The notes beneath the pieces were generated by a model. It was given only the letters and a program-made list of their open reading frames with translations. It did no database searches and was not told where the DNA came from. The position numbers were made by a program, and so were the translations under genes. A stretch of DNA of 32,000 nucleotides, from contig JAZDEL010000008.1 in NCBI GenBank assembly GCA_043808785.1, positions 31,284-63,283 of the forward strand. Direction: 5' to 3'. Below are positions 14,797 through 30,369 of this stretch, in pieces (positions within the stretch are counted from its first letter, which is position 1; each line of letters begins with the position of its first letter). The stretch is from Candidatus Iainarchaeum sp. (lineage in GTDB: Archaea; Iainarchaeota; Iainarchaeia; Iainarchaeales; JAZDEL01).

Positions 14797-15196
14797 CACC
14801 AACATAGCGGTGTCCGCGCTTATCGCAAAGGAGGGCGCGCCTGCAAAGGTATTCGAGAAACTCATCCGCAGGGAAATCGAGAATTACACTTCAAAGGAGA
14901 TAATATCCGAACTGAAGGAAGTGCTGAAAAGGAAGGAAATCGCCGAAAGGACGAGCGGAAAGGCGAGGAAGTTCATCCTGAGGGAGTACCTGAATAATTC
15001 AATGAGGGTCGCGGCAAAGCGCGGGGTGCACGCTGCGGCGCACGATGCGGACAACAGGTTCCTTGAGGCTGCGCTGGCTGCGGGGGCGAAATATATAATT
15101 ACGGGCGACAGCCATCTGCTGGAACTGCGCGAATTTGGGGGCGCGAAAATATTGAGGGCGAAGGAATTTCTGGAAACATCGGCAGGGAAGGGTTAA
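14759..15196 (+). CDS. vapC: PIN domain toxin (PIN_3/TIGR00305-like)
   Basis: RVVIDTNIAVSALI...SKEIISELKEVLKRKE...DADNRFLEAALAAGAKYIITGDSHLLEL. Has a TTG start and overlaps the antitoxin gene by 38 nt. Confidence 0.85.
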   Translation: MSARQGAERVVIDTNIAVSALIAKEGAPAKVFEKLIRREIENYTSKEIISELKEVLKRKEIAERTSGKARKFILREYLNNSMRVAAKRGVHAAAHDADNRFLEAALAAGAKYIITGDSHLLELREFGGAKILRAKEFLETSAGKG

Positions 15197-15206
15197 ATAT
15201 ATAACC
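15185..15206 (+). promoter_or_regulatory. TATA-box palindrome gggaagGGTTAAATATATAACC (second identical copy)
   Basis: Overlaps the PIN stop codon (15194-15196). A weaker related box, aaaggttaaaaac, at 15223-15235 lies 32-45 nt upstream of ATG 15268. Confidence 0.4.
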
Positions 15207-15267
15207 CGCTTCCTGCGCGGGGAAAGGTTAAAAACAAAGGAAGCGCAGGTATATTCGGGGTTCGGGA

Positions 15268-15465
15268 ATGCCTGCAAGGACAATGCGCGGAATAGTCCGC
15301 GGGTTCGGGTCAATAAGGCTTGACATATCGAATGTGGAAACAGCCGAGGAATTTGAAAGGCTGGAAACTGAACTTAACGACCCCGATGTCCTGAGCGAAG
15401 TCGGCGCGGAAAGCGTGCGCGTTTTGAGGGAACTGATGCTTGAAAGGCGCAGGGAAAAGGAATAG
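15268..15465 (+). CDS. small acidic protein, hypothetical
   Basis: 65-aa ORF (MPARTMRGIVRGFGSIRLDISNVETAEEFERLETELNDPDVLSEV...) with promoter-like boxes upstream. The long antisense ORF 15228..15647(-) is low-complexity. Confidence 0.4.
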   Translation: MPARTMRGIVRGFGSIRLDISNVETAEEFERLETELNDPDVLSEVGAESVRVLRELMLERRREKE

Positions 15466-15478
15466 GCACTGCGGGAAA

Positions 15479-15494
15479 GGTTAAATATAAAACC
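15479..15494 (+). promoter_or_regulatory. TATA box ggaaaGGTTAAATATAAAACC for the PGI gene
   Basis: Variant of the 22-mer above, centred about 40 nt upstream of ATG 15529. Confidence 0.5.
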
Positions 15495-15528
15495 ACAAAC
15501 AAACACAAACGCTTCGGGTTCGGTTCGG

Positions 15529-16314
15529 ATGCCTTCGGTTTTTGTCGATTTGCAGAAAATTTCAGGCTTGCCCCTGAAACTTGACAAAAAAACCAACCGC
15601 GCGGTTTTCGGTTCGGGTGCGAGGAAGGTTGACGCGGTTATACGCACGGGCGCGGAAATGAGGCAGGCGCTTGCTGATGCGGATTCTGTTGAGCCCGCAA
15701 AGGAGTGCTATTACATGTACCGCGGGGTTTGCATGGAGCACGATGCTTTGGAGATTGAAAGCGCGGGGCTGAGGTATGATATAACTGTTTTGCCCGCGCT
15801 CATGCTCGGAAAGGAGTTCAACAAAACCTTCGGGCATTTCCACCCGAAAGTCCCCGGCACTGCGATGAGTTACACCGAGGTTTATGAAGTGCTGCAGGGA
15901 AAGGCGCATTATATCCTGCAGAACCCTGCGTGCACGGAGTTTTTTGTTTTTGAAGCAAGCGCGGGGGAAAAGGTTGTTATCCCCCCTGGATACGGGCATG
16001 TTACAATAAACCCCTCCAAAACGGAAACTTTGGTTATGTCGGACTGGACTGCTGCGGGGTTCAAAAGTGATTACGGGGTTTTCAGGGAGAGGCACGGCGC
16101 AGCACAATATGAAACCGCCAAAGGATGGATAAAAAACAAAAAATACGCAAAAGTTCCGAAGATGCGCATGGTTAAGCCGCGCGAGGTTCCAGAGTTCGGG
16201 TTCAGGAAAGGGAAGCCGATGTATTCCCTCGTGCAGGAGGGGAAACTGGAACTGCTGGATTTTTTGAAGATGCCTGCGGATTATGCGAAGGTTTTTGAAA
16301 GGCTGCTGCGCTGA
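15529..16314 (+). CDS. pgiA: cupin-type glucose-6-phosphate isomerase (cPGI family)
   Basis: Both cPGI signatures are present: GHFHPKVPGTAMSYTEVY (GHxH-x11-ExY) and PPGYGHVTIN (PPxxxHxxxN). Confidence 0.85.
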   Translation: MPSVFVDLQKISGLPLKLDKKTNRAVFGSGARKVDAVIRTGAEMRQALADADSVEPAKECYYMYRGVCMEHDALEIESAGLRYDITVLPALMLGKEFNKTFGHFHPKVPGTAMSYTEVYEVLQGKAHYILQNPACTEFFVFEASAGEKVVIPPGYGHVTINPSKTETLVMSDWTAAGFKSDYGVFRERHGAAQYETAKGWIKNKKYAKVPKMRMVKPREVPEFGFRKGKPMYSLVQEGKLELLDFLKMPADYAKVFERLLR

Positions 16315-16341
16315 ACCGCGCGCCTGAGCGCACGGGCGCAA

Positions 16342-17340
16342 CTACTTCTTCACAGCAACGAGTTTGCACATTTCAACAAGCCTCTGCGAGTAGCCCATCT
16401 CGTTGTCGTACCATGCGAGGACTTTCACGAGTTTCCCGCCCGAGACGCGGGTCATTGTTGAATCAAAGATGCACGAATGCTTGTTCCCTATGATGTCCGT
16501 GCTAACGAGCGGCTCCTCGGAATACTGCAGGATGCCGTTAAGTTCCTTTTCAGAGGCGCGCCTCATTGCGAAATTTACCTGTGAAGCCGTGGCTTCCTCC
16601 TTGAGAAGAACGGTTAAGTCGGTGATGCTGCCGTCAGCAACGGGAACGCGGAGCGCGAGGCCGTCGAGTTTCCCTTTCATGGCGGGGAGGACGTTGCCTA
16701 TCGCGCTTGCGGCGCCGGTTGTTGTCGGCACAATGTTGATTGCGGCGCTCCTCGCGCGGCGCAGGTCGCGGTGCGGACCGTCAACCAAATTCTGGTCCGC
16801 GGTGTATGCGTGAACCGTGGTCATAAGGCCGCACTCGATGCCGAATGATTTCTCAAGAACCATTACAACTGGGGCGAGGGAATTTGTAGTGCATGAGGCG
16901 AGGTCGATTATTGTTTCACCGTTGTATGAGCCGCAGTTGACGCCGCGGACGAATTCGTTAACGCCCGTGCCTTTTGCAGGGGCGGTGATTATCACTTTCT
17001 TGGCGCCGGCAACAAGGTGCTTGCCAGCGCCCTCTTTGCTGCAGAAAACGCCCGTGCTTTCTATAACTACCTCGATTTTCATTTTTCCCCAGGGGAGCTT
17101 TTCTGGTTCCTTCTCGCTGAGGACGGAAATTTTCTTTCCCGAAACAATAAGCGAACTGCCCTCGTGCTTTACCTCAGCGGAAAATTTGCCGTGCACGGAA
17201 TCGTGCTTAAGGAGGTGCGCGAGCGTTGCGCTGTCGGTGAGGTCGTTCACTGCAATTATTTCAATTCCCTTCTCGCCAAAGGCGCACCTGAAAAAATTCC
17301 TGCCAATCCTGCCGAAGCCGTTAATTGCAACGCGAACCAT
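16342..17340 (-). CDS. gap: glyceraldehyde-3-phosphate dehydrogenase, class I (bacterial/eukaryal type)
   Basis: MVRVAINGFGRIGRNF at the N-terminus, active site ASCTTNSLAP, and WYDNEMGYS at the C-terminus. Start set at ATG 17340 (the track start is TTG 17346). TATA catttaaat at about 17375-17385. Confidence 0.95.
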   Translation of the reverse strand: MVRVAINGFGRIGRNFFRCAFGEKGIEIIAVNDLTDSATLAHLLKHDSVHGKFSAEVKHEGSSLIVSGKKISVLSEKEPEKLPWGKMKIEVVIESTGVFCSKEGAGKHLVAGAKKVIITAPAKGTGVNEFVRGVNCGSYNGETIIDLASCTTNSLAPVVMVLEKSFGIECGLMTTVHAYTADQNLVDGPHRDLRRARSAAINIVPTTTGAASAIGNVLPAMKGKLDGLALRVPVADGSITDLTVLLKEEATASQVNFAMRRASEKELNGILQYSEEPLVSTDIIGNKHSCIFDSTMTRVSGGKLVKVLAWYDNEMGYSQRLVEMCKLVAVKK

Positions 17341-17422
17341 GTGCAAACCTCCCTTGAGCCAATTAACCTAAATATGAAAAGCATTTAAATTTGGTTGTTT
17401 TCGGGCGCCCCGAAATTACGGG

Positions 17423-19103: not shown

Positions 19104-19541
19104 ATGGTTTCAGTTTTTGGAAAGGGGAATGGGCGAAAAGGGCAGGTGGCGATAGAGTACATACTCATGAGCGCGTTCCTTCTGCTGGTCGTGGGCGTGC
19201 TGTTCGTGCACTCATATACGCAGTATGACAGGACAATGAAGATCGAGATGACGCAGCATGCCGTGGATTCGCTTGGCGAGGCTGCGGACCAGGCGTATGC
19301 GCTCGGCACAGGAAGCGTGCTTTTTGTCGATATGGACCTGCCTTACGGAATCGAGGGCTACACGGTTACGCAGAAGAACATCACATTAAAGTTGAACCTA
19401 ATAGGGGTGCAGGACACGGTATTTACGAGGACTGTTGCCGACCTGAATATGTTTTCCGCAATTCCAACATCCCCGACAAGGCACAGGATGAGGGTCAGCA
19501 TGGGGGCGACCAACATAACGCTGCAGGAGGTCTTCGACTGA
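19104..19541 (+). CDS. pilin-like protein with class III signal peptide
   Basis: MVSVFGKGNGRKG|QVAIEYILMSAFLLLVVGVLFV: basic residue, then Gly, then Q-x-x-x-E-Y and a hydrophobic helix. Confidence 0.75.
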   Translation: MVSVFGKGNGRKGQVAIEYILMSAFLLLVVGVLFVHSYTQYDRTMKIEMTQHAVDSLGEAADQAYALGTGSVLFVDMDLPYGIEGYTVTQKNITLKLNLIGVQDTVFTRTVADLNMFSAIPTSPTRHRMRVSMGATNITLQEVFD

Positions 19542-19581
19542 ACTGCAGCCAGCCAAATCGCTTCGGGGGGGTGTTGCCGGC

Positions 19582-19941
19582 ATGCGTAGAGGACAGGCTT
19601 CCATCGAGATCCTGATGGCTGTGGGGCTTATAATCATAATATTCATCTTTGTGAGCTGGTTTGTCTCAACAAGGGCGGCGGATACGGAATTCGTACACAC
19701 GCAGTACGAGAACCAGCGCGTGTGCGAAAGGCTGGCATCCATAATTTCTTCCGTTTACGCGGCAAAGTCCGGGACTGAGATAAAGACCACTATAGAGAGC
19801 AATGCCCAAATAGTGAACAACAGCATACACATAGGGCAGTATGCCTGCGACTTCGTCGGCAAGGCAAACCCTGCAACCCTGGCTGCGGGGCCGATAAGTG
19901 CGCGCAATCAGGGCGGAATCGTGATTTTGCAAAACCCGTGA
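19582..19941 (+). CDS. pilin-like protein with class III signal peptide
   Basis: MRRG|QASIEILMAVGLIIIIFIFVSWFV. RBS-like GGGGGGTG lies upstream. Confidence 0.75.
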   Translation: MRRGQASIEILMAVGLIIIIFIFVSWFVSTRAADTEFVHTQYENQRVCERLASIISSVYAAKSGTEIKTTIESNAQIVNNSIHIGQYACDFVGKANPATLAAGPISARNQGGIVILQNP

Positions 19942-19977
19942 TCCTGCAAAACATATGATGTTAGCCGAAAACGAGCC

Positions 19978-19995
19978 ATATATTAAATAAAAAAT
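19978..19995 (+). promoter_or_regulatory. internal TATA-like box (atatattaaataaaaaat)
   Basis: Lies 13-30 nt upstream of ATG 20008. Shares ATATTAA(A)TAAAAA with the box at 19073-19091. Confidence 0.35.
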
Positions 19996-20007
19996 GCAGA
20001 AGGCGTT

Positions 20008-20541
20008 ATGATGGATGTTGCTTTTCCAGGGAAATCCCCTGCGTGCGGAGTAAGGGGGCAGATTGCGGCAATAGACTTCCTGTTCGGGCTTTTCATATTC
20101 CTGCTCATAGTTGCGTGGCTGCTCAGCGTGTGGACAAACAACATGGAGGTCGCGATAGGCGAGCAGAATTTCGATGAGATGAGGATGAAGGGCTTCCAGA
20201 TCATGGACGTGCTTGTAAGGACGCCAGGCACGCCCGAGAACTGGGAGGGCACGGGCATCACAAACATAAGCACGATAGGGCTGGCATACAAGGACAGGGT
20301 TGTGGATGCCAACAAGCTCGCGAAGTTCATATGGCTCGGCGATATCGCGCACGAATATGCAAAAACAAAGGAGATATTCGGGATTGTGCCTTACGATTAC
20401 GAATTCACGCTTGACGGCATCGAGGACTTCAACACCGGCAAGCCCATAGAGGGCGCACCCATAGTTATCTCGATGGAGAGAACAGTGCTGTATCTGGGGA
20501 GCGATGCAAATGCGAAGATTGCCATTTACTGGGAAGAGTAG
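20008..20541 (+). CDS. pilin-like protein with class III-like signal peptide
   Basis: ...GVRG|QIAAIDFLFGLFIFLLIVAWLLSVW followed by a roughly 135-aa soluble domain. Confidence 0.7.
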   Translation: MMDVAFPGKSPACGVRGQIAAIDFLFGLFIFLLIVAWLLSVWTNNMEVAIGEQNFDEMRMKGFQIMDVLVRTPGTPENWEGTGITNISTIGLAYKDRVVDANKLAKFIWLGDIAHEYAKTKEIFGIVPYDYEFTLDGIEDFNTGKPIEGAPIVISMERTVLYLGSDANAKIAIYWEE

Positions 20542-22804
20542 GGCTGCCTGCACGCGGCGTGCGGGCAGGGGCGTGGCAATATCCGTCGATGCCCTGCTTG
20601 CGGTAATATTGATAGCCACGCTCGCCACTTTCGGGAAGTTCGCGCTCTACCAGGAGGCTGCGCCCAATAACCTTGTAAAGATGCAGACAATGCAGCGCAC
20701 GGACGACGTGTTCACTACAATGGTAAACTCGGGTTACATGATGGATGTCATGGACGACAACGGCTTCAACTCGGCTTCCGTGCAGGCGATTTACGCAAAG
20801 ATGAACGCCATGACGCCGAGCAGCCTCGGGCTCAGGATTGCGATGAGGAAGTACGACATAAATTTCATGCAGTGCAGGGAATCCAAGACATTCGAGGCGT
20901 GCTTCCCCGATGAAAGCATGAGCGAGATAATTGAGGGTGGCACTGTGCCGCCAGATACCGAGGTGCTGCACGGCAGGAAGGTGTTTGTAAAGCAGGAAAA
21001 GCCCGGGGAGTGCGGAGGCGATTATAACGGGGGGTATGCGCAGGGCGGAATCGCGGATGCGCTTTGGAACGGCATCCTGATGTTCGCTGCCTACGGAAAC
21101 GCGGACATTAACTTCAGCATAGATGTCAGCCCCGAGAGTGAGCTCAATTGCGATGAAGAGGCGGATGTGTCGCTTGGAATAAGCGTGGGCATCGGCGGCA
21201 GGGACCCTGTCGATGTTGCGCTTGTTATGGACCGCTCGGGGAGCATGGATGATTACACTATGTTTGACAGGAACGTGCTTACGGGGCAGTTTGACGACGG
21301 CAACAAAACCTGCAACTGCGCAAGCTGGATGTGCAGCCTGTGCGGCAACAGCTGGTGCTCGTGGTGCTATACTTACGGGAACTGGCAGACGCTCGGCACT
21401 TTCACAATAGACAGCAACCAGGACACGAATGTGACGATGAGGTATGCGGGATACAGCGGGGGCAGCAAGCCGAAGCTGAGGATTGTGAGCCCCGGTGGAA
21501 CTACTTACGGCGGGACCGCGGCTTCTGTAGCGGCCAGTTATCCTGTACAGCTAGGCACCTGGACCGCGCAGGGATGGAGCGACGACTGGATAGATTACAA
21601 TGTGAGCGTATATTACAGGAAGATCGATGTCTCAAAGGACGGGGCGCAGTATTTTGTGGGGCTTGCGGACTGGGAGGAACAGGACCAGCTTGCGCTGGTT
21701 TCCTACAACCAGAGCGCAACGCTGAACCAGGCGCTGACTACGGACAAGAACAAGGTGTGGGTTGCGATAAACGGGCTGAGCGCCGGCGGCAATACCGCGA
21801 CAGGGGACGCGATTTACAAGGCGACGGACGAACTCATGGGCGGCACGAACCAGAATTCGGATGCGATGAAATTCCAGGTCTTGCTGAGCGACGGGCAGAC
21901 GAATACCGGCAGTTCATCCTCGGCTGCGGCGCAGGACGCAAAAAACAAGGGCATAATAATTTACACAATAGGCCTTGGCGAGGATGTCGATGCGAACGAA
22001 CTGCAGGCGATTGCGGACATAACCGGCGGGCAGTACTATTATGCAAACGACCAGAACGCGCTTCAGGAACTGTATGAAATTATTGCGGGGAATATAGGGG
22101 ACGACGCTTCGGGGGGATATGCAATGACCAATGTCATTGTTAAGATTCCCGTGCCCCCGGGCACAACCATAACCGACACGGGGAACGGCGAATTCCAGGA
22201 GGGGGATGAAAACTTCCTCGTGTTCAATGTCGGGGACATGGAGTACAGTTCGGAGTGGCAGGGGAATTATTCCCTTGTTTATCCCTGCTCGGAAGAGCCG
22301 AGCTGCTCGGCTTCCGAAAAGGTTTTTCCAGAAGAGGGGGCGTACGTGAGTTACATAGACGTGAACGGTATCCCGCAGAATATCGACTGGGATGTCAATG
22401 TTACCCTGGATTTCCTCTACCGCGACCTTGCAATAGAGATAATCGGCGGCGAAATCACGGGCGAGAACGAGGTTTACCTCGATGTGAATGCGAAGAACCC
22501 GGGTTACCTTGACACAGTGGCCACGGACATAAAGTTCTACCTCAACGGCACCGGAGGGGACGGGGGCGAGTACATTACAAGCAGGAATGTTTCGGCAATG
22601 TGCGGCGGGTTAAGTGAAGGGTGCGATAACAGCAGCGAAGAGTTCTACGATATTTTCATAAACAAGGAGGGTTATATTTATGCGGTGATAAATGAGGATT
22701 CGGAGAACGAGGAATGCCCGAACAGGAATGTGGATTCGATAAATTGCTACGAGGGCGCTAAGACGCAGTATTTCACCCTCGATTACTGGGTGTGGCTTAA
22801 ATGA
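20504..22804 (+). CDS. large pilin-like protein with vWA domain (intact MIDAS) and C-terminal beta-rich, CARDB-like region
   Basis: N-terminus RRAGRG|VAISVDALLAVILIATLATF. MIDAS DRSGS at 21230-21244, then GGNTATGDAI, LLSDGQTN and IYTIGLGEDVDANELQAIADITGGQYYYA. An alternative ATG lies at 20510. Overlaps the previous gene by about 35 nt and the next gene by ATGA. Confidence 0.8.
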   Translation: MQMRRLPFTGKSRAACTRRAGRGVAISVDALLAVILIATLATFGKFALYQEAAPNNLVKMQTMQRTDDVFTTMVNSGYMMDVMDDNGFNSASVQAIYAKMNAMTPSSLGLRIAMRKYDINFMQCRESKTFEACFPDESMSEIIEGGTVPPDTEVLHGRKVFVKQEKPGECGGDYNGGYAQGGIADALWNGILMFAAYGNADINFSIDVSPESELNCDEEADVSLGISVGIGGRDPVDVALVMDRSGSMDDYTMFDRNVLTGQFDDGNKTCNCASWMCSLCGNSWCSWCYTYGNWQTLGTFTIDSNQDTNVTMRYAGYSGGSKPKLRIVSPGGTTYGGTAASVAASYPVQLGTWTAQGWSDDWIDYNVSVYYRKIDVSKDGAQYFVGLADWEEQDQLALVSYNQSATLNQALTTDKNKVWVAINGLSAGGNTATGDAIYKATDELMGGTNQNSDAMKFQVLLSDGQTNTGSSSSAAAQDAKNKGIIIYTIGLGEDVDANELQAIADITGGQYYYANDQNALQELYEIIAGNIGDDASGGYAMTNVIVKIPVPPGTTITDTGNGEFQEGDENFLVFNVGDMEYSSEWQGNYSLVYPCSEEPSCSASEKVFPEEGAYVSYIDVNGIPQNIDWDVNVTLDFLYRDLAIEIIGGEITGENEVYLDVNAKNPGYLDTVATDIKFYLNGTGGDGGEYITSRNVSAMCGGLSEGCDNSSEEFYDIFINKEGYIYAVINEDSENEECPNRNVDSINCYEGAKTQYFTLDYWVWLK

Positions 22805-24999
22805 ACAAAACGAAAAATCAGGCATGCCGCAGGGGCTACACGCTGTCCCTCGATGCAATGCTTGCTCTGCTCCTCGTGATTGCATTCATAGGTTTCAGCA
22901 GGGTTGTGCCTTTCGAGGCCGGCACCACAAGCAACCTGCCGAAGATGCAATCCGTGCAGAGGGCGGACGATGTTTTCACTACGATGATAAACAGCGGATA
23001 TATGTGGCAGAAAATAGACGAGGTCGGGCTGAATAACGAGGCGGCGGAAAACATATACGCCAAGATGAGGGGCATGCTGCCTGACAGTGTCGATTTCAGG
23101 ATTGTGATAAGGAAGTACCAGGTGAATTTCGACCAGTGCAGGCTTGGCAAGACATTTGAGGCGTGCTTCCCGAGCGATGGCTTGTCGGAAAGGATTGCGG
23201 GCAAGGTGCCGCCCGTAAGGAGCGAGGTTGTGCACGGCAGGGGCGTATTTGTGAAGAAGGAGCCTGTCGGGATGTGCACTGTGGAGGGCGGGCTTGCGCC
23301 AAAGGAAGGCGGGGTTTCGGAGAAAAAATCCACTGCATGGCTTGAAGGGGAAATGATGGGGCTTGAGATGACAACAAGCGTAGACCCTCCAGCCCCGCCG
23401 TGCCCCCCGAATTCGCTTTTGTGCGACGGCACTGCTACAACACACCTTGGTCTAAATGCGATAGCCGGGGAGGGAAGGGCGCCGGGGCATGTGCTGTTTG
23501 GGATTGACATGGGCAACCCTATGGGCAAGAGGTACGTGACCCAGAGCGGCTTCAACCTTGTCGGCCCCTGCAGCAAGCTAGGGACAACCATGGGGACGTT
23601 CCAGAACACAACAGATTACTCTTTCACGCTTAAATTAAGCGACTGCTTGGGGGCCAAAATTACAGCCATCAGCCCTACTCTCGCGGAATACGGGCCGGGT
23701 GACTATGTCGATGTTTACCGCCCGACAGCGCTTGGCACCTGGACTGTTCAATGCAGCAATAAAGATGCATTGTCGTGCAATGTCATTATGACGCGCACAA
23801 ATTTAGAGGCGGGGCAGATGTTTCTTGAAGGCGTAGTGGCTACAACCGATTGGAAACTCGAGGGCGCTGAAGGCCCCGACGAGGATGCGTTCACGACATT
23901 TCAGGACACCACATCAACGCTTCTCGTGCCGTTAACAACTGACGAGGATTCGGTACTGCCTGCAATAGACGGCCTGCTAATCTCCCAGCTTGGCAGCAAT
24001 GCGGATGTTGCTGCAGCGGTAATTGCGGCAACCGATATACTAAAAACAACCCCTGAAGGGGAGGTAAGGATATTTATTCCTGTCACAAACATCCACACAG
24101 GGGGGAGCATAGCCGATGCCGCGAACTATGCCAAGGCAAACGGCGTGGTGGTTTACCCTGTTGGTGCCGGGTATAATTCGGATATGGTTGCACTAAACGA
24201 ATTAGCATTAATTACAGGGGGAGAGGCGTGGCTTCTGACCGAAACTGACGCACTAATAGATTATTATACACTCATGGCCCAGAAACTGAAGGAGAGCATG
24301 ATAAACGGCAACCGCATAGACAATGCGCAGCTCAGGATTCCTGTTCCCGCGGGGCAGCTGGTTACCGAACACCTTGGCGGGGAGATAATACCGGAGGGCG
24401 AGGAAGAGTTCCTTGTTTACGACCTTGGAACGCTTGATGTCGGCGAGGGGTGGAGCACGGATTATTCCGTAGTGTTCCAGTGCAATGACGACCACGCATG
24501 CCAGAGCGGGAACACGCGGACTTTCCCGCAGCCTGTAACGGAAATAACCTACATGGATATAGATGGCTTGTTCGGCTCTGTGCCCTGGGACCCGCTTGTG
24601 GAGGTGCCTTTCAAATACCGCGACCAGGAGGTTAAAATAATGGGCGGCAGGATTGTGGGGGAGAACCAGGTTTACCTTGATGTGAATGTTGCGAATGTCG
24701 GGCATCTTGATACGGTGGATACGTCGCTCAGGTTTTACAAGGACAGCACAGGCGATGACGGCACGTACCTTACCGCAAGGGGCGTAAGCGCGATGTGCGG
24801 CGGGCTCGAGGCGGGGTGCGGGGACAATGAGGCGTTGTATTACGATGTTCCGCTGGCAGCGGAGGGCTATCTTTACGCGATTGTGAACAAGCTCGGGGAA
24901 AATTCCGAGTGCCCCACAAACAGCCAGGATGTCATACTGTGCCAGCTAGGGGCGAAGACAGAGTATTACACTATCGATTATTATGTGTGGCCGAAATGA
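22801..24999 (+). CDS. large pilin-like protein, paralog of the preceding gene, with a degenerate (MIDAS-less) vWA-like domain
   Basis: N-terminus ACRRG|YTLSLDAMLALLLVIAFIGF. Alignable by eye to the upstream paralog in the N-domain (MQSVQRADDVFTTMINSGYM vs MQTMQRTDDVFTTMVNSGYM; KTFEACFP in both) and in the C-terminal ~220 aa (ENQVYLDVNVANVGHLDTV vs ENEVYLDVNAKNPGYLDTV; SAMCGGL in both). The MIDAS position reads DMGNP (23506-23520). Confidence 0.8.
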   Translation: MNKTKNQACRRGYTLSLDAMLALLLVIAFIGFSRVVPFEAGTTSNLPKMQSVQRADDVFTTMINSGYMWQKIDEVGLNNEAAENIYAKMRGMLPDSVDFRIVIRKYQVNFDQCRLGKTFEACFPSDGLSERIAGKVPPVRSEVVHGRGVFVKKEPVGMCTVEGGLAPKEGGVSEKKSTAWLEGEMMGLEMTTSVDPPAPPCPPNSLLCDGTATTHLGLNAIAGEGRAPGHVLFGIDMGNPMGKRYVTQSGFNLVGPCSKLGTTMGTFQNTTDYSFTLKLSDCLGAKITAISPTLAEYGPGDYVDVYRPTALGTWTVQCSNKDALSCNVIMTRTNLEAGQMFLEGVVATTDWKLEGAEGPDEDAFTTFQDTTSTLLVPLTTDEDSVLPAIDGLLISQLGSNADVAAAVIAATDILKTTPEGEVRIFIPVTNIHTGGSIADAANYAKANGVVVYPVGAGYNSDMVALNELALITGGEAWLLTETDALIDYYTLMAQKLKESMINGNRIDNAQLRIPVPAGQLVTEHLGGEIIPEGEEEFLVYDLGTLDVGEGWSTDYSVVFQCNDDHACQSGNTRTFPQPVTEITYMDIDGLFGSVPWDPLVEVPFKYRDQEVKIMGGRIVGENQVYLDVNVANVGHLDTVDTSLRFYKDSTGDDGTYLTARGVSAMCGGLEAGCGDNEALYYDVPLAAEGYLYAIVNKLGENSECPTNSQDVILCQLGAKTEYYTIDYYVWPK

Positions 25000-25023
25000 G
25001 CCATTTGAAGGGGGAATAAGTGA

Positions 25024-26052
25024 ATGAAAAATTGCCTTGTGCGGAAAGGGATGGGCGAGAGGGGCGTGCTTTTCACATTCATGGTTTTCATGATTGTGAT
25101 GATAGTGCTCGGCCTCGGCACGACTATAAAGGGCGGCAGGCTGAAGTTCGAGTCGGATGTCACCAAAACCTCGGCACTGGAGGGCACGAGCAACAAATTC
25201 GGCAACATAATGAACGATGTCGTAAATTTCGACAAAAACAACCTTGCGAGGAACATACAGAAGAGAATTATGCCGTTCGATTATGAGTATGACGGAAACG
25301 CCATCCGGGTAGGGCAGGAACTGCCGATGAAGGTCGGGATGCTCGACCTTTCGTTCGACATACTGAACGCGTACGATATCTTCATTTCGGACACGAACTC
25401 GCAGACTACATACGACCTGATGCATGTCGACGTGAATGCGGCAAAAAACAAATATTGGGGCGGCGACAGGAACAGCATACAATTCATGATAAAGCCGCAG
25501 TGCCTGAAGTTTGTTGTTGTCGACGAGAACGTTACGGGCTTCTTCGGCGGGATTGCGGACGAGGGCTGCGCATCGGGCTTCTCAGTCCAGAGCCTAAGGA
25601 GGTATGACCTCAATATCCTGATAAAACAGGCCAACCAGGCATATAACAATATTGTGTGCAATTTTGCAGGGTCCCCCCCCGAGGAATGCCCCACGGAAAT
25701 TTTCAGTTCTGGCGACAATGACCCTTACTTCGAGATGTTTGTTGACGACAGTTTGTGCACAAACTGCCAGCTCGGGGGGCAGACAAAGCACATATACGGG
25801 CATTACGACCCGGCATCCAACAATACTGTGGGTGTTTCGTGCGCAGGGGGGCCGGAAATATGCGGCGTCACGATAAACCCCATACTTGTGACTGTCAACA
25901 GCGGCATGAAGGCGGAGAACAAGGGCGGCGCTTTGGACGTAAACATGAGGGCGGAACTCGGGGGAAATATAATGCGGTTTTATTTCATGGACTTTAATTT
26001 TGCGGTAAGCCGCCCGGATTTCAACACCATGATGACGAATGTCGGGCAGTGA
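25024..26052 (+). CDS. Cys-rich pilin-like / membrane-anchored protein, hypothetical
   Basis: MKNCLVRKGMGERG|VLFTFMVFMIVMIVLGLG, then about 310 aa with 8 Cys in the predicted extracellular part. Confidence 0.6.
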   Translation: MKNCLVRKGMGERGVLFTFMVFMIVMIVLGLGTTIKGGRLKFESDVTKTSALEGTSNKFGNIMNDVVNFDKNNLARNIQKRIMPFDYEYDGNAIRVGQELPMKVGMLDLSFDILNAYDIFISDTNSQTTYDLMHVDVNAAKNKYWGGDRNSIQFMIKPQCLKFVVVDENVTGFFGGIADEGCASGFSVQSLRRYDLNILIKQANQAYNNIVCNFAGSPPEECPTEIFSSGDNDPYFEMFVDDSLCTNCQLGGQTKHIYGHYDPASNNTVGVSCAGGPEICGVTINPILVTVNSGMKAENKGGALDVNMRAELGGNIMRFYFMDFNFAVSRPDFNTMMTNVGQ

Positions 26053-26185: not shown

Positions 26186-27943
26186 ATGGCTGAAGGCACT
26201 GGAAAGGAAGGCATCGGCGAGGCGATACTGAATTTCTTCAGGTCGCTCAGGAGGACGAAGATTCGCGGGAAAAAACAGCAGGATGCCGAGGCGCCGGGGG
26301 GCGAACTTGCCGAAGAAATTGCACCCGAAGAAAAAAAGGCGGGGAGGGGGAAGGCTGCGCCTGGAAAGGCTGCGGGGGGCTGGGAAGAGCGGGGGGAAAC
26401 CGCCGAAAAAACAGCCGGCAGCGGAGAGGCAAAAGCGCGGGAAGGCGAAACCGCGGGAATGGGGCCTGAAGAAAAGAAAATGCTCGAGAAGGAACTCAGT
26501 GAGTGGAGGTCAAAAGTAGATGCGCTTACAAAAAAGGTGGAGAACCTTGAGGAAAGGCTCAAGTCAAACACAATATCCCCCAACCAGGCGGTAAGCGGGA
26601 TTCAGGTTGTTTACGGGGAAGTGGACAGGGAGGAGAACTCGATAAACAGGGAGATGCGCGCAACAAAGGCGGTGATGAAGGGCACTGTTTTCGATTATTA
26701 CAAGAGGCGCATGACGCTGGACGAGTTCAGGAAGAGGATGCTCGAGTACAGGGGCAGGCTGCGCGTGCTGCAGGTCGAGAAAGCGGAATTGAAGAAGGAG
26801 GGCTCGAAGATAAGGGAAATGGGCGGGACTGTAAAGCAGTTCGCGCTGCAGATGCCTGCAAACGCAACAGTTGTGCCGGGCGGGAGTGCGGAGATGGACG
26901 CGGTATTCGGAAAAGGCGGCGGGGGCGGGAAAGGTAAAATTATAGGCGTGATTGGGGGCGGGGGCGGTGAGCAATCAGGAGGCGGGGCGGCGCCCGGGGG
27001 GAGCGGCAATTCCGCAGGCGGCGGGATAGGCGGCGCTGTTGAGGGCGTTGTTTCCGGAGTTGTGGGGGCAGGGTATGCAGCAGCATCCGCACTTAAGGGC
27101 GGGAAAAAAAGCGATGCGGGTTCGCGCGCGGCGCTGGCTGGTGCGGAACGCGCCGAGAGGGAGGCAAGGGCTTCCGCTGGAAAAGCCGTGGCGGGAAAAG
27201 GTGCAAAGGGGCCGAAAGGCGCAAGGGCATTTGCGGTAAACGTCTCGGGCAGGGATGAAGGGGGGGCGGGAAAGGCTGCCAAGCCGGCGCTCCCGAGGAT
27301 GCCGAATGGGAAGGGGGAGCGGGAAGGTGCGGATGCAGGAGGGGGGGAAGAAGTGGATAAGGATGCCCTTGAGGAAAGGTGGGGGGGCGCGGCAGGGGTG
27401 AAGGAAATACTTGAGGCAAAGGCGGGGGGAAAAATCGACAGCGAAAGGCTTGCGGAACTGGAGAAAAAAATAAACGCCCTGCTCAAGGCGCACAAAATTT
27501 CCGAAAGCGACCTCGGGGAAAAGGCCGGGGAGATGGACACCTCGAAAGTCATAGAGAGTTTCAACAAGCTTATAGATTTGGTGGAACTTGAGAAGAGGGC
27601 AAAAAGGGCGGGCGTGCTGCAGGAGCCGACAAACACCCTGGAGGTTTCCGCTGTCGGGCTGGGCTCGCCAAAAAAGGTGGAGGCACTTAAGGGGATTGCG
27701 ATAGACCTGAAGAAGCACCGCATAGTGACGGATTTCGACCGCGTGCTCTCGCTCATAAAGGAAAAAAAGAAGATGGGGCTTATTGAGGTCGCGGCAACGC
27801 TCGGCATAGACAAGAAATGGGCGGAGGAGTGCTGCGAAATACTCGAACAGAGCGGGCTTGTGGAAATAGTATACCCGCCTTTCGGAAAGGCGGGGGTAAG
27901 GCTTTCGGGATATGTTGAGGAGAAGAAGCCCAAGAAAAAATGA
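26186..27943 (+). CDS. cytoplasmic low-complexity (Gly/Ala/Lys/Glu-rich) coiled-coil protein with C-terminal winged-helix-like domain
   Basis: No hydrophobic segment. Contains a coiled-coil stretch (EKKMLEKELSEWRSKVDALTKKVENLEERLK), a Gly-rich core, and an ordered-looking C-terminal ~70 aa (IVTDFDRVLSLIKEKKKMGLIEVAATLGIDKKWAEECCEILEQSGLVEIVYPPFG). TATA gtatattttatt at about 26125-26139. Strand chosen by operon context; the antisense ORFs are Pro/Ser/Ala low-complexity. Confidence 0.6.
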   Translation: MAEGTGKEGIGEAILNFFRSLRRTKIRGKKQQDAEAPGGELAEEIAPEEKKAGRGKAAPGKAAGGWEERGETAEKTAGSGEAKAREGETAGMGPEEKKMLEKELSEWRSKVDALTKKVENLEERLKSNTISPNQAVSGIQVVYGEVDREENSINREMRATKAVMKGTVFDYYKRRMTLDEFRKRMLEYRGRLRVLQVEKAELKKEGSKIREMGGTVKQFALQMPANATVVPGGSAEMDAVFGKGGGGGKGKIIGVIGGGGGEQSGGGAAPGGSGNSAGGGIGGAVEGVVSGVVGAGYAAASALKGGKKSDAGSRAALAGAERAEREARASAGKAVAGKGAKGPKGARAFAVNVSGRDEGGAGKAAKPALPRMPNGKGEREGADAGGGEEVDKDALEERWGGAAGVKEILEAKAGGKIDSERLAELEKKINALLKAHKISESDLGEKAGEMDTSKVIESFNKLIDLVELEKRAKRAGVLQEPTNTLEVSAVGLGSPKKVEALKGIAIDLKKHRIVTDFDRVLSLIKEKKKMGLIEVAATLGIDKKWAEECCEILEQSGLVEIVYPPFGKAGVRLSGYVEEKKPKKK

Positions 27944-27967
27944 AATTTTCACGGGAAGGTGAGGTGC

Positions 27968-29479
27968 ATGGCGGATAAGCAGATAAAGGAATATGAACTC
28001 GAATCCGAGGGAATGAAGGTAAACATACGGATTGTGGAGATGGAGGGCGAATTCGTAAAGAGCTATTTTGTGGACATACCCGAATTCGGCCCCGGCACGG
28101 AGGCGCTGCTGCAGAACCTGAAGGGCTACCTTGTTACGGACACTAGCATAAAAACGGAGAAGATGTTCGACGCGAAATTCATAGATTCGCTGAGGAAGAT
28201 ATTCAGGGAGCGCGCGGAAATAATACTCTCCAAGGAGCTGCCGCATGCGGACCAGAGGACGAAGGACCTGCTCATAAGCATGCTGCTGCACGAGATGCTC
28301 GGGCTCGGCAAGTTAGAGTTCATGCTTGCCGACGGGAACCTCGAGGAAGTGGTCGTGAACACGGCAGCGGAGCCTGCGTGGGTCTACCACAAGGAGTTCG
28401 GGTGGCTCAAGACGAACATAACGTTCGCGAACGAGGGGCAAACGCAGAACTTCGCAAGCATAATAGCAAGGCGTGTGGGGAAGCAGATAACCGTGCTGAA
28501 CCCGCTGCTTGACGCGCACCTCATAACAGGGGACAGGGCGAATGCGACGCTTTTCCCGATTTCGGGGAAGGGGAACACGATAACGATAAGGCGATTTAGG
28601 CGCGACCCGTGGACTGCCGTGGATTTCATAGCGAACAAAACTGCAACAATTGAACTTATGGCACTTGTGTGGTCCGCAATACAGTATGAAATGAACCTTA
28701 TAGTGAGCGGCGGCACGGCTTCGGGAAAGACCTCGTTCCTGAACGTTTGTATGCCGTTCATACAGCCGAACCACAGGATTGTGAGCATAGAGGACACGCG
28801 CGAAATTTCATTGCCGAGCTTCCTGCACTGGGTGCCAATGACCACAAGGGAGCCTAACCCTGAAGGGCACGGCGGGGTGAGCATGCTTGATTTGCTTGTG
28901 AACTCGCTCAGGATGAGGCCTGACAGGATAATTGTGGGTGAAATAAGGAGGCAGAAGGAGGCGGAGGTGCTTTTCGAGGCGATGCACACCGGGCACAGCA
29001 CTTACACAACAGTACACGCAAACACAGCGGACGAAACAATAAGGAGGATGGCGAACCCGCCAATAGCGATACACCCCACGATGCTTGAGGCAGTGCACCT
29101 CAATGTGGTCATGTTCAGGAACCGCAGGCTGGGGATAAGGCGCATACTGGAACTTGCGGAGTTTATACCTGAAAAGAGGTCCGAGACCGAGGAAAATATA
29201 AAGCCGAACGTGCTTTACAGGTGGAAGCCTGCAAAGGACGTAATAGAGAAGCACGCGGACAGCATAAGGTTCTTCGACGAAATGAGCCTGCACACGGGAA
29301 TGACACGCAGCGAGATAGACAAGGACCTCAAGAGCAAGCAGGGCGTGCTTGAATGGATGATAAATCAGAAGATCCGCTCCATTGAGGACGTCGGGGCGGT
29401 AATGGCAAATTATTATTCAAACGAGGACGAAATACTCGGCTTCGTCAAACAGAAAAAGAAACCGCCGTTTGTGAGATGA
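27968..29479 (+). CDS. type IV pilus/archaellum-family secretion ATPase (FlaI/PilB/TadA-like)
   Basis: Walker A SGGTASGKTSF (around 28709-28732), Asp box RIVSIEDTREI, Walker B PDRIIVGEIR, His box MHTGHSTYTTVHAN. ATG 27968 is preceded by GGTGAGGTG (the track start is GTG 27959). Confidence 0.9.
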   Translation: MADKQIKEYELESEGMKVNIRIVEMEGEFVKSYFVDIPEFGPGTEALLQNLKGYLVTDTSIKTEKMFDAKFIDSLRKIFRERAEIILSKELPHADQRTKDLLISMLLHEMLGLGKLEFMLADGNLEEVVVNTAAEPAWVYHKEFGWLKTNITFANEGQTQNFASIIARRVGKQITVLNPLLDAHLITGDRANATLFPISGKGNTITIRRFRRDPWTAVDFIANKTATIELMALVWSAIQYEMNLIVSGGTASGKTSFLNVCMPFIQPNHRIVSIEDTREISLPSFLHWVPMTTREPNPEGHGGVSMLDLLVNSLRMRPDRIIVGEIRRQKEAEVLFEAMHTGHSTYTTVHANTADETIRRMANPPIAIHPTMLEAVHLNVVMFRNRRLGIRRILELAEFIPEKRSETEENIKPNVLYRWKPAKDVIEKHADSIRFFDEMSLHTGMTRSEIDKDLKSKQGVLEWMINQKIRSIEDVGAVMANYYSNEDEILGFVKQKKKPPFVR

Positions 29480-30369
29480 TGAAGCAGGCATCGATACCGT
29501 TCAGCCCTTTGCCGGCAAAAATGCTGCTGCAGCTTTGCGGGCGCTTTAAGGGAATGGGGGCTAGGATAACAAACGCTTTCCCCTACATGAAAGTGGAGCT
29601 GAAGCAGGCGGAACTCGGGGTTGACGAGGCTGAATACGGCGCCGCAATGGTCTTCCTGTTCGGGTTCTATTTTGTGGCGGCAACCATAGTGGTTTATGCT
29701 ATGGGGCTGCAGTTCTTCCCTGAAAACGCGATTATTGCGGCGCCGACACTCGGCGGAATATTCGCATTCCTTGTGCTGATACAGCTAAGCATGTTCCCGA
29801 AAATAAAGGTAAAGAAGAAGGTAAGGGACATAGAGCGCAACCTTATTTTTGCGCTTAGGACCCTGCTCATCGAAATAAAATCCGGCGTCACGCTTTTCAA
29901 CGCGATAAACGTGGTTGCGGAAGGGCGCTACGGTGCGGTAAGCAGGGAATTCAGCAAGGCCGTTGAGAAGATAAATACCGGCACGAGCGAGGAGGCCGCG
30001 CTTGAGGAAATCGCCGCCCAAAATCCCTCGCTTTTCTTCAGGAGGGCGATGTGGCAGCTGCTTAACGGCCTTAAAACCGGCGGGGACATAAGCAATGCGG
30101 TTGCCGCAATGGTGGATACGCTTGCAAAGGAGCAGGCAAATCAGGTGAGGAAATACGGCTCGTCGCTGAGGCTGCTCTCGCTTGTTTACATGATGCTTGG
30201 CGTGATAATACCTGCATTGGGGCTGACTTTCCTCATAATACTCGGGTCGTTCCCGCAGATAGCGATAACGGAGATGATGTTCTGGGCACTGCTTGCGGCA
30301 ATAATCCTCGGGCAGTTTATGTATCTCGGCATGCTTAAATCCGGAAGGCCGAACCTCATGGGTGAGTGA
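29476..30369 (+). CDS. T2SSF-domain membrane platform protein, half 1 (TadB/EpdJ-like)
   Basis: One T2SSF module (LIFALRTLLIEIKSGVTLFNAINVVAEG...FFRRAMWQLLNGLKTGGDISNAVAAMVDTLAKEQ) flanked by TM helices. An ATGA overlap joins it to the ATPase stop. Confidence 0.85.
   Translation: MMKQASIPFSPLPAKMLLQLCGRFKGMGARITNAFPYMKVELKQAELGVDEAEYGAAMVFLFGFYFVAATIVVYAMGLQFFPENAIIAAPTLGGIFAFLVLIQLSMFPKIKVKKKVRDIERNLIFALRTLLIEIKSGVTLFNAINVVAEGRYGAVSREFSKAVEKINTGTSEEAALEEIAAQNPSLFFRRAMWQLLNGLKTGGDISNAVAAMVDTLAKEQANQVRKYGSSLRLLSLVYMMLGVIIPALGLTFLIILGSFPQIAITEMMFWALLAAIILGQFMYLGMLKSGRPNLMGE

Follow-up and report, generated by a model that had tools for sequence, protein, structure and literature searches.

Why does an archaeal pilus operon carry two giant pilin-like genes in tandem, one with an intact vWA metal site (MIDAS) and one in which this site is degenerate? 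DPANN archaea such as Iainarchaeia are presumed to need contact with other cells, and a giant vWA pilin is thus an obvious candidate for an attachment determinant. The two genes, here termed A and B, are found in a 32-kb window (the whole stretch of DNA analysed), which is part of a Candidatus Diapherotrites/Iainarchaeum (DPANN) MAG. According to our analysis it is moderately probable that A is a MIDAS-dependent tip adhesin and that B is a co-expressed, dispensable subunit that has been retained on account of its pilin module and stalk.

The type IV filament operon to which both genes belong is Epd-like ("system 1"; Table 1). Using the definition of system 1 given in bioRxiv 10.64898/2026.04.22.720090, we found a secretion ATPase, a two-gene platform, and pilin-like genes across 19104-26052. 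Only the candidate major pilin p145 matched Pfam Class_IIIsignal, slightly below the cutoff (E 6e-5; 23.3 bits, cutoff 23.7 bits) and is 48% identical to its homolog in locus L006, and the assembly ATPase matched both the FlaI (5.5e-76) and TadA (9e-53) families of NCBIfam, each under its own cutoff. The gene order of three small pilins, giant pilin(s), p342, ATPase and split platform was kept in L001, L002, L006, and L087; p342 followed the giant pilin(s) in all loci examined, with homologs of 322-337 aa in L001, L002, L004, L005, L087, and L006. The last 38 nt of p177 also form the start of gene A, and overlaps of 26-29 nt with the giant pilin were observed in homologous loci, while the protein at the position of p585 differs in length from locus to locus. 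Throughout Iainarchaeia and related DPANN, this conserved type IV filament operon contains a giant vWA pilin as a fixed part.

Table 1. Features of the pilus operon and of genes A and B, with positions in the 32-kb window. In N-termini and signal motifs, a slash marks the predicted cleavage site.
Feature	Positions	Strand	Remarks
p145, small pilin, candidate major pilin	19104-19541	+	N-terminus ...RKG/QVAIEYIL, i.e. G-x4-EY, Flp-like motif
p119, small pilin-like, candidate minor pilin	19582-19941	+	N-terminus MRRG/QASIEILM...; syntenic homologs in L006 and L004
p177, pilin-like, candidate minor pilin	20008-20541	+	N-terminus ..VRG/QIAAIDFLF..
Gene A, 766-aa modular vWA pilin, MIDAS intact	20504-22804	+	
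A: class-III-type signal/cleavage motif RG/VAISVD, aa 22-29	20567-20590	+	Hydrophobic helix next
A: pilin-like N-domain, aa 51-170	20654-21013	+	AF2: helices leading into beta strands; contains two Cys pairs that are invariant
A: vWA domain, aa 236-536	21209-22111	+	Pfam VWA 2.2e-19; PDB profile matches; AF2; Foldseek
A: MIDAS motif 1, DRSGS (D243-R-S245-G-S247)	21230-21244	+	
A: beta-rich insert splitting vWA after beta1, aa 250-372	21251-21619	+	
A: Cys/Trp-rich loop within beta-rich insert	21305-21379	+	
A: MIDAS T431	21794-21796	+	
A: MIDAS D463	21890-21892	+	
A: C-terminal beta-sandwich pair, aa 537-766	22112-22801	+	All-beta (AF2); second putatively CARDB-like; final conserved strand QYFTLDYWVWLK
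ATGA stop/start overlap of A and B	22801-22804	+	Sequence of 22795-22810: GCTTAAATGAACAAAA
Gene B, 732-aa paralog of A, MIDAS degenerate	22801-24999	+	
B: class-III-type motif RG/YTLSLD, aa 11-18	22831-22854	+	
B: vWA-fold region, aa 229-501	23485-24303	+	Pfam VWA 9.8e-6; without Cys/Trp loop of A
B: remnant of MIDAS motif 1, DMGNP (from D236)	23506-23520	+	
B: A401 at MIDAS Thr position, within QLGSNADVA	24001-24003	+	Alignment
B: V428/T429 at MIDAS Asp position	24082-24087	+	Alignment
p342, pilin-like	25024-26052	+	N-terminus ..ERG/VLFTFMVFM..
p585, G/A/K/E-rich low-complexity protein	26186-27943	+	C-terminal part conserved
FlaI/TadA-type assembly ATPase	27959-29479	+	Pfam T2SSE 5.9e-34
Platform protein, first half	29476-30369	+	Pfam T2SSF 7.6e-17
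Platform protein, second half	30362-31369	+	Pfam T2SSF 2.2e-15

The N-termini of both giant proteins resemble those of pilins. In A (RG/VAISVDALLAVILIATLATF) a short charged leader and a [K/R][G/A] site precede a hydrophobic helix of ~20 residues, modelled by AF2 as residues 28-49, and B (RG/YTLSLDAMLALLLVIAFIGF) likewise has an N-terminal helix in its AF2 model. Neither protein matched Pfam Class_IIIsignal (PF04021) at E <= 1. A logo of 102 members of the giant-pilin family, which comprises at least 150 cluster representatives, gave the motif [KR][GA]/F..[ST].[DE], with K/R in 84, G/A in all 102, F next in 84, D/E at +6 in all 102, and an invariant A at +10. The A-type N-domain also occurs in proteins with different C-terminal parts and in proteins of 157-173 aa; the latter are of minor-pilin size and consist of the N-domain and the terminal strand alone, which suggests that the vWA and further modules of the giant pilins may have been inserted ahead of the last pilin strand. 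The class-III-type signal, the hydrophobic helix and the pilin-like N-domain would place A and B in the filament. Since the body of the filament could hardly accommodate proteins of ~740 residues, the analogy to PilB and CpaL suggests that A and B most likely share the pilus tip with p342 and the small minor pilins. Alternatively, the signal could serve only for export and anchoring, as in the substrate-binding proteins of the Sulfolobus bindosome, with A and B never being polymerised. Archaeal class III signals are indeed also carried by surface proteins that are not pilins (discussed in PMC4858521) and the N-domain of A and B had no pilin-domain match in Pfam, but the position of the giant-pilin gene, always between the small pilins and p342, ATPase and platform, the existence of the short N-domain proteins, and the invariant acidic +6 residue and A at +10, as in assembly-competent pilins, make this explanation very unlikely.

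Above the pilin module, A and B would present a vWA head, into which a beta-rich "arm" is inserted, and then two beta-sandwiches. Both proteins scored over the gathering cutoff of Pfam VWA (PF00092; 23.8 bits), A with 70.7 and B with 26.3 bits. The AF2 models had a pLDDT of 82.1 for A and 78.6 for B, and in A, where the vWA core was mostly above 90, the order was beta1 (236-243), the strands of the insert (251-372), and a helix (373-385). Strands and helices follow the same order in B, where the pLDDT of the vWA region was 60-86; since both models were built from one shared, shallow alignment of 27 sequences, the vWA fold of B is partly inherited from A-type homologs. Foldseek matched the two models to 4fx5, vWF A3, integrin I-domains, SpaC, PitA, and PilB at probability 1.0, the best matches being the pilus-tip vWA adhesins PitA, SpaC, Mfa5, and PilB; the matches of B included 4fx5, PitA, ArnB, and SpaC as well as TFIIH p44, Sec23/24, and Rpn10. 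The proposal of pilin-like proteins with a vWA fold was thereby upheld for both genes by Pfam, AF2, and Foldseek. Regarding the stalk, CARDB (PF07705) was matched at E <= 1 by 7 of 15 family members (best 1.6e-5), though not by A and B themselves, and the family profile matched the last beta-sandwich to PDB 3idu at 6e-4.

The two heads differ in their metal sites. Gene A retains DxSxS...T...D in full (D243, S245, S247, T431, and D463), so that the MIDAS originally described as complete was recovered residue by residue. By vWA biochemistry, such a site may bind Mg2+ or Mn2+, and an acidic group of the ligand would complete the coordination, giving metal-dependent adhesion. Gene B has D236, G238, P240, A401, and V428/T429 at these positions, the last being V428 in BLASTP and hmmalign and T429 in alignments with the vWA structures 4rck and 1ao3. 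The original prediction that every MIDAS residue of B is replaced therefore holds for four of the five, whereas the first Asp of DxSxS is kept. Nor did the alignments reveal any Ser, Thr or Asp at a shifted position from which a MIDAS might be rebuilt; as judged from sequence, B cannot form a canonical MIDAS. The B ortholog of L006 has D, G, F, T, and D at the five positions.

BLASTP aligned A and B end to end in a single alignment with 271 of 762 residues identical (36%; E 4e-139), far exceeding chance and indicating that the two genes are full-length paralogs and old duplicates. Three regions had been described as alignable by eye; the N-domain and the C-terminal end (last 126 residues) are indeed the best conserved at 54% each, whereas the vWA part reached only 26-28%. 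The ATGA overlap of the two genes was confirmed from the sequence of the junction and is also present in L006 (12304-12307). Together with the adjoining positions of the genes, its retention in both B-carrying genomes could speak for an obligate heterodimer, in which A and B pair via their heads or stalks into a two-headed tip and the pseudo-vWA acts as a scaffold or regulator of the vWA of A. It would also agree with such a dimer that B retains an A-like pilin module (N-domain 54-58% identical to A types) and has lost none of the structural cysteines, and that several distinct minor pilins are known at type IV filament tips (PMC12607857). However, ATGA-type overlaps are general in this operon, for instance ATGATGA at the ATPase/platform junction (29476-29479), and the A-B overlap is thus no specific evidence for an A-B complex.

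The distribution of the pair across the family argues further against the heterodimer. Among 86 family representatives, 66 have the MIDAS residues DSSTD, as do 28 of the 34 complete giant-pilin ORFs in the retrieved loci, and nearly all loci examined contain one intact-MIDAS copy. A single giant pilin was present in 28 of the 30 other species-level loci examined, and the nearest A-type relatives, P0002 and P0003, also encode one giant pilin each, with the p342 homolog directly next to it and B absent. The A-B pair with the same overlap recurred in only one other species (L006), so that our homolog survey did not bear out the idea of the intact/degenerate pair as a conserved design; the pair is a lineage-restricted, dispensable duplication and not a general design principle. 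Conversely, copies with a variant MIDAS stand alone in the same operon in L031, L032, and L087, showing that a degenerate copy needs no intact partner. We consequently find an obligate A-B dimer unlikely.

In the NJ tree, the grouping of B with its L006 counterpart, the A clade and the union of A and B each had bootstraps of 100/100, and P0002 and P0003 nested with A (99/100). The two B sequences share B-specific characters, namely the deletion of the Cys/Trp loop, the substitution S245G, the sequences EGRAP and INGNRxDN, and a C1 identity of 45%, although long-branch attraction could have inflated their grouping; B of the window also resembles the A-type proteins of the group of A in the N-domain and last domain. 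A would accordingly be the ancestral, conserved subunit, and B would derive from one tandem duplication within a small subclade, its head having lost both MIDAS serines and the Cys/Trp arm, and then, in the window genome, the Thr and Asp as well.

Sequence divergence is distributed differently over the two proteins. The vWA is the best conserved part of A (57-61% identity among clade members, 47-52% against the distant P0005), whereas the head is the least conserved part of B, with 31% identity between the two B sequences, which argues against a conserved pseudo-vWA interface as the heterodimer would have it. The dN of the vWA core was 0.70 for B compared to 0.25 for A, while that of the N-domain was similar (0.43 for B and 0.48 for A orthologs); overall, B had a pN of 0.44 and a (saturated) pS of 0.68, and dN/dS was <1 throughout with dS saturated. 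Between the window and L006, the operon pilins are 41-55% identical, the A orthologs 52%, the ATPase 79%, and B 35%, the lowest value among the operon products, although B as a whole evolves only moderately faster than the other operon pilins, which all evolve fast. From these two B sequences and with dS saturated, the head of B appears to be relaxed or diversifying.

These data bear on what B may be doing. That it is a functionless relic heading for loss would fit the low B identity, the loss of MIDAS and arm loop, and the disappearance of B from the P0002/P0003 lineage. Yet both B ORFs are full length (732 and 797 aa) despite A orthologs having diverged down to 52% and synonymous sites being saturated, B has kept the signal motif and ten cysteines that show little or no variation in the family, and the N-domain of B is constrained as strongly as that of A, rendering a relic extremely unlikely. 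Alternatively, B could have become another adhesin of the tip, whose ligand specificity is new and does not depend on metal, its head diversifying, for example in response to host-surface variation met by a DPANN episymbiont, and each pilus carrying A or B, or both independently. A fast head in both B lineages with the remainder constrained, the additional Cys-rich module gained by the L006 B, and the replacement of the arm insert by LVIVD beta-propellers in some relatives, which implies that remodelling of head and arm is common in the family, are all in line with such a change; moreover, partner binding by vWA domains without a MIDAS is familiar from other proteins, and TFIIH p44, Sec23/24, and Rpn10 were among the fold matches of B. 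On the other hand, dN/dS was below 1 everywhere (with dS saturated), two B sequences do not allow positively selected sites to be called, and B is dispensable, since it was lost in close relatives. We therefore regard a new adhesive function of B as rather unlikely. In the reading that we prefer, B would still be translated, with purifying selection acting on its pilin module and stalk and its head now evolving about three times faster than that of A, and would be a MIDAS-independent accessory tip or minor-pilin subunit and not a conserved pseudo-vWA partner.

Modular tip pilins displaying a vWA domain are already established in bacteria (PilB and CpaL/TadG, with PilY1 as a non-pilin example). 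Like CpaL/TadG, A and B have a pilin-like N-terminal module with a cleavage site of the G/A-x4-F/E type, and a beta-rich domain splits their vWA shortly past beta1 and MIDAS motif 1 in the AF2 models, as in Caulobacter CpaL, a pilin plus vWA split by a beta-rich domain, for which a tip position beside two small minor pilins was proposed (PMC12607857). The FlaI/TadA-clade ATPase and a platform split as TadB/TadC likewise recall the Tad system. However, homology to CpaL/TadG was not detectable in sequence beyond the vWA, bacterial matches being confined to the vWA core (about residues 363-531), and the vWA of the giant pilins was nearest to BatA-like domains in profile searches. TadE (PF07811), Tad (PF13400), and TadG N-terminal domains were not matched by A or B in Pfam (E <= 1) or NCBIfam (E <= 0.01). 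Furthermore, the split vWA is not diagnostic of TadG, because SpaC, RrgA, and PilB show it too, and A and B differ in their archaeal host, which has no secretin or outer-membrane parts, in their two C-terminal beta-sandwiches (one putatively CARDB-like), and in the MIDAS-dead tandem paralog. The suggested link to TadG and the Tad pili thus reduces to a shared vWA and an analogous architecture, and the A-B pair lends no specific support to a TadG-Epd evolutionary connection.

The operon organisation itself, in which numerous class III pilins are encoded together with an ATPase and a pair of platform genes, is that of the Methanococcus maripaludis Epd pilus, and system 1 has been reported from methanogens and some DPANN (bioRxiv 10.64898/2026.04.22.720090). 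Unlike Epd/system 1 as described, the locus includes a vWA pilin, which that survey does not mention once, and no prepilin peptidase gene was found within the 32-kb window. Consistent with the original prediction, we found no description of archaeal vWA pilins in the searchable literature; the giant pilins seem to be an undescribed archaeal counterpart of bacterial pilus-tip adhesins, with a dead-site copy in few lineages only. A more far-reaching view would be that Iainarchaeia build a PilY1/CpaL-like adhesive tip of an Epd-type pilus from a self-contained giant vWA pilin, and that in one subclade the tip has two subunits, the "dead" paralog co-assembling with the MIDAS-active one and tuning or diversifying host attachment. 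We consider this improbable; if true, it would give archaea their own example of paired active and pseudo-domains and a way into host recognition by ultrasmall archaea.

PilY1 of Pseudomonas and Myxococcus is similarly a vWA-bearing tip factor that works with minor pilins, and larger relatives of the giant pilins, which join the vWA to an LVIVD-repeat beta-propeller, are reminiscent of it. In contrast to A and B, which have pilin-type N-termini and gave no Pfam match to a propeller domain, PilY1 does not belong to the pilins and carries a specific PilY1 propeller at its C-terminus. The best full-length fold matches of A and B were the sortase and type V tip adhesins SpaC (6m48), PitA (7w6b), RrgA, and Mfa5 (6to1), which also carry a vWA with inserted beta arms on Ig-like stalk domains; these proteins lack a pilin helix and are assembled by unrelated machineries (sortase, or the type V route, which involves lipoprotein processing), and the likeness is a convergent head-on-stalk design. 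Also similar in architecture is the bimodular type IV pilin PilB of S. sanguinis (7b7p; Foldseek E 1e-8, PDB profile 1.2e-4), where a pilin module presents a vWA head with the MIDAS flanked by "arms", although PilB has a bacterial N-methylation-type signal, is ~460 aa long without C-terminal sandwiches, and has its vWA appended after the pilin fold, as opposed to the insertion before the last strand suggested by the short homologs of the giant pilins. In this tip-exposed pilin, D319A abolishes metal binding and leaves the fold unchanged (PMC8179133). Gene B is the natural analogue of such a MIDAS mutant, and A and B together offer a natural comparison of one scaffold in a MIDAS-bearing and a MIDAS-less form, by which the contribution of the metal site could be assessed.

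Genes A and B encode two paralogous vWA proteins with class III signals in a type IV filament operon, and the metal site MIDAS (DxSxS...T...D) is canonical in only one of them. Both ORFs share the ATGA at 22801-22804, bearing out the overlap claimed in the original prediction; since the ATPase/platform junction of the same operon overlaps too, this feature is not discriminating. BLASTP joined the two proteins in one end-to-end alignment (271/762 identical, 36%, E 4e-139), and the three alignable regions recognized earlier by eye were recovered with 54% identity in the post-helix N-domain, 54% over the last 126 residues and 26-28% in the vWA part, the lowest of any region. The Pfam VWA model scored above its gathering cutoff (23.8) in both, with 70.7 bits for A and 26.3 bits for B.

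Gene A carries the complete MIDAS ascribed to it, with D243-R-S-G-S247 (21230-21244), T431 and D463 all present. For gene B the replacement of every MIDAS residue had been proposed, and this holds for four of the five, the first Asp (D236) being kept. Motif 1 of gene B reads D236-M-G-N-P (23506-23520), and the Thr position is A401. At the Asp position BLASTP and hmmalign place V428; alignment to 4rck and 1ao3, two solved vWA domains, places T429 there. Judged from alignments to solved vWA domains, no Ser, Thr or Asp at neighbouring positions appears able to rebuild the site with shifted ligands. The observation is real and chance is excluded, and at the sequence level the description of an active domain beside a pseudo-vWA is correct.

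Features of the window's pilus operon
Feature	Coordinates	Strand	Description
p145, p119, p177	19104-20541	+	three small class-III-signal pilins; p145 (..KG↓QVAIEY) Flp-like
Gene A	20504-22804	+	ORF, 766 aa
Gene B	22801-24999	+	ORF, 732 aa
p342	25024-26052	+	further pilin-like protein
p585	26186-27943	+	low-complexity protein, 585 aa
ATPase	27959-29479	+	FlaI/TadA-type
Platform genes	29476-31369	+	two T2SSF genes

The NCBI protein of gene A (P0001, 743 aa) begins at V24 (GTG 20573) and thus lacks both the charged leader and the R-G motif for cleavage. Missing from this gene model, the motif [KR][GA]↓F..[ST].[DE] is retained by every homolog, and in homologous loci the giant pilin likewise overlaps the pilin gene before it by 26-38 nt. 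The longer start (window 20504-20590) is therefore probably the right one and the NCBI start an annotation error. Across 102 members of the family of modular vWA proteins related to A and B (giant pilins), the N-terminus has [K/R] in 84/102 and G/A in 102/102, followed by F (84), A/V, F/I/L, S/T, L/I/V, an invariant D/E (102/102), A-L-L-A and a hydrophobic stretch, which by its residues is a class III (prepilin-type) signal; the motif reads RG↓VAISVD in A and RG↓YTLSLD in B.

AlphaFold2 models of A and B (mean pLDDT 82.1 and 78.6) share one order of elements. A long N-terminal helix and a helical/beta N-domain, which reaches to about residue 170, are followed by a disordered linker and then a small beta unit. 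Next comes the vWA, whose beta1 bears MIDAS motif 1 and whose remainder lies beyond a beta-rich insert of some 120 residues (the arm); two beta-sandwiches follow, and a long terminal strand closes the chain. The last sandwich is CARDB-like (family profile against 3idu, 6e-4; Pfam CARDB matches 7/15 members), and Foldseek placed both predicted models near vWA proteins, among them the pilus-tip adhesins PitA, SpaC, Mfa5 and PilB. The N-domain also occurs in proteins of up to 2207 aa with quite different C-terminal parts, and in four proteins of 157-173 aa (P0163, P0178, P0185 and P0154) it is joined directly to the terminal strand, P0163 ending in ..YYSLEYRSWLK; some other short matches are contig-end fragments. 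To judge from these four small proteins, the giant pilins may have arisen by insertion of the vWA and beta-sandwich modules into a minor pilin some 160 aa long, rather than by addition of the modules to its C-terminus. In larger relatives of 860-1200 aa (loci L016-L030; P0010-P0012, P0017-P0026), LVIVD beta-propeller repeats (PF08309; 2.3e-55 in P0010) stand at the insertion point of the arm, directly after DxSxS, a combination of vWA and propeller that recalls PilY1.

The small pilins, A, B, p342, p585, the ATPase and the platform genes form one plus-strand operon. NCBI names of identical proteins assign the contig to a Candidatus Diapherotrites MAG (DPANN), and related loci are labelled Ca. 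Iainarchaeum. An ATPase, a split platform and many pilins are the defining set of archaeal type IV filament 'system 1' (Epd-like), which is reported from methanogens and some DPANN (bioRxiv 10.64898/2026.04.22.720090). No prepilin peptidase gene and no tRNA or Rfam feature was found in the window. The p585 protein is of G/A/K/E-rich low complexity, with strong purine skew at 26-28 kb (GC skew 0.35, AT skew 0.34); in related loci the gene at this position encodes 131 to 751 aa and is conserved at its ends only. Upstream of the pilus operon, genes for PGK and type-I GAPDH are present both in the window (12221-17346) and in two distant relatives, L001 and L087, indicating conserved synteny; in the window a PIN-domain gene (14759-15196) and the gene for a cupin-type glucose-6-phosphate isomerase (15529-16314) separate the two.

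A word-indexed search with gene B returned gene B alone. An exhaustive search of cluster representatives gave 154 matches at E <= 1e-3, of which 61 reached E <= 1e-30, the closest relative outside its own cluster being 41% identical. The five MIDAS residues are DSSTD in 66/86 representatives with an aligned vWA. When GTDB species genomes were scanned with a 10-sequence alignment, 30 loci besides the window's own held a family member. A single giant pilin with DSSTD was found at 26 loci; single-copy variants were DSSYD at L029 and DSPND at L031 (9998-11947) and L032 (9998-11974), both encoding proteins of about 650 aa, while L027 held a fragment truncated at the contig end. A further single copy, P0076 with TSSSN, lies in a fully syntenic operon (L087, 10001-12316). 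The single copies at L031 and L032, where the check covered a second family member within 10 kb only, and P0076 indicate that the metal site has been modified more than once in the family without an intact copy nearby. One family member (P0021, locus L022, JBDRPR010000028.1) is encoded on a 5.3-kb contig that had been assigned to a Bacteroidota MAG; it is a typical archaeal giant pilin, and the contig is probably mis-binned.

Conservation of the intact/degenerate pair, raised in the original prediction, was not found, as the only tandem A+B pair among the 30 other loci was that of L006 (Ca. Iainarchaeum JBDRDO010000092.1). Here L6a (768 aa, DRSGS/T/D) and L6b (797 aa, DRGEF..T..D) show the same 4-nt overlap as A and B in an operon fully syntenic with that of the window. 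Between N-domain and beta unit, L6b (L006 12304-14697) contains an additional Cys-rich module of some 50 aa (CTYCGNGVCDDDEGENCSTCSGDCLPTGLECC...; about aa 157-210), which the window's gene B lacks. In the nearest A-type relatives, P0002 (57%) and P0003 (54%), a p342 homolog directly follows the giant pilin. Scans of metagenomes, one with an alignment of B alone and one with that of the A+B clade, returned no relatives, so the B-type survey comprises two genomes and a 96%-identical fragment, P0055.

A neighbour-joining tree (100 bootstraps) grouped gene B with L6b (100), gene A with P0002, P0003 and L6a (100; gene A with P0002 and P0003, 99) and the A and B clades together (100). Gene B and L6b both carry S245G and the motifs EGRAP and INGNRxDN, both have lost the Cys/Trp-rich loop of the arm, and they are 45% identical in sandwich C1. 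Independent duplications in the two genomes were rejected, as the within-genome pairs A+B and L6a+L6b each received 0/100 and the B-specific motifs and deletion are shared. Bootstraps and shared derived characters together indicate one duplication at the base of the subclade, after which the two serines of B would have been lost early, and Thr and Asp later in the window's lineage; B itself would have been lost in the lineage of P0002 and P0003. Both gene B and L6b form long branches, and gene B is indistinguishable from an A-type of the gene A group in the N-domain and last domain, so the history of the duplication may be mosaic. Recent conversion between A and B as the cause of the A-like N-domain was rejected, since this domain of gene B is as near to P0002/P0003 (56-58%) as to gene A (54%). 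N-domain pS (window 20654-21013 against 22918-23280, and the L006 equivalents) was 0.56 and 0.62 in the within-genome pairs as compared to 0.67-0.78 in orthologs, which could reflect shared codon usage or old partial gene conversion.

Synonymous sites were saturated (pS 0.6-0.8, with the JC correction undefined in several regions), so the dN/dS estimate proposed for the paralogs would not be trustworthy and only dN and pN comparisons are usable. For A and B orthologs, respectively, dN was 0.41 and 0.67 over the whole protein, 0.25 and 0.70 in the vWA core, and 0.48 and 0.43 in the N-domain. Identity in the vWA was 57-61% among A orthologs within the clade and 47-52% to the distant P0005, compared to 31% between the B proteins and 26-30% from B to A; the vWA is the best-conserved part of the A-types and the worst-conserved part of B. 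The reading frame of B is intact in both genomes, and the signal motif has been retained along with the family's 10 invariant or near-invariant cysteines. Between the window and L006 the operon pilins are 41-55% identical, the ATPase 79% and B 35%; B is the extreme of a trend to fast evolution among the operon pilins.

By analogy with established vWA and pilus biology, A may be a tip-located, metal-dependent adhesin, and the conserved pilin module of B would bring it into the same assembly, with a head that no longer uses metal. The original prediction paired the two in a heterodimeric tip complex, a proposal that is unproven and weakened by the comparative data. Close relatives dispense with B, constraint on B is weakest in its head, and copies with a variant MIDAS occur alone. 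We therefore consider B more likely to be an accessory subunit that does not depend on a MIDAS, its head relaxed or diversifying, than the partner of A in an obligate heterodimer.

PilB of S. sanguinis is a tip vWA pilin in which D319A abolishes metal binding and leaves the fold intact (PMC8179133), and Caulobacter CpaL, a pilin with a vWA split by a beta-rich domain, has been placed at the tip by modelling, together with CpaJ and CpaK (PMC12607857). The giant vWA pilins may work like PilB, CpaL/TadG and, more loosely, PilY1, without support for membership in these families. TadG membership was rejected by domain tests, the TadE/Tad N-terminal and TadG models having no match in A or B, and PilY1 membership was rejected as both lack the PilY1 propeller. 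Bacterial matches are confined to the vWA core, and the nearest domains to the giant-pilin vWA are BatA-like. The suggested bearing of a TadG-like neighbour on an archaeal origin of bacterial Tad pili is likewise unproven and weakened by the comparative data.

A census of archaeal type IV pili from 2016 listed vWA only in cytoplasmic ArnB-like regulators and bacterial TadG (PMC4858521), a 2026 survey of type IV filaments does not mention vWA (bioRxiv 10.64898/2026.04.22.720090), and literature searches on von Willebrand domains in connection with pili and DPANN gave no relevant result. Databases already hold such proteins under generic names, and what is new is the archaeal form of the modular vWA pilin/tip-adhesin theme together with a lineage-restricted, MIDAS-dead paralog. 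One database example, the haloarchaeal P0039 (Halomontanus rarus, 1019 aa), combines a class-III-like N-terminus (..NRG↓NAQIIGLVLL) with DUF7289, DUF7305 and vWA, and indicates that vWA proteins with pilin-type signals are not confined to DPANN.
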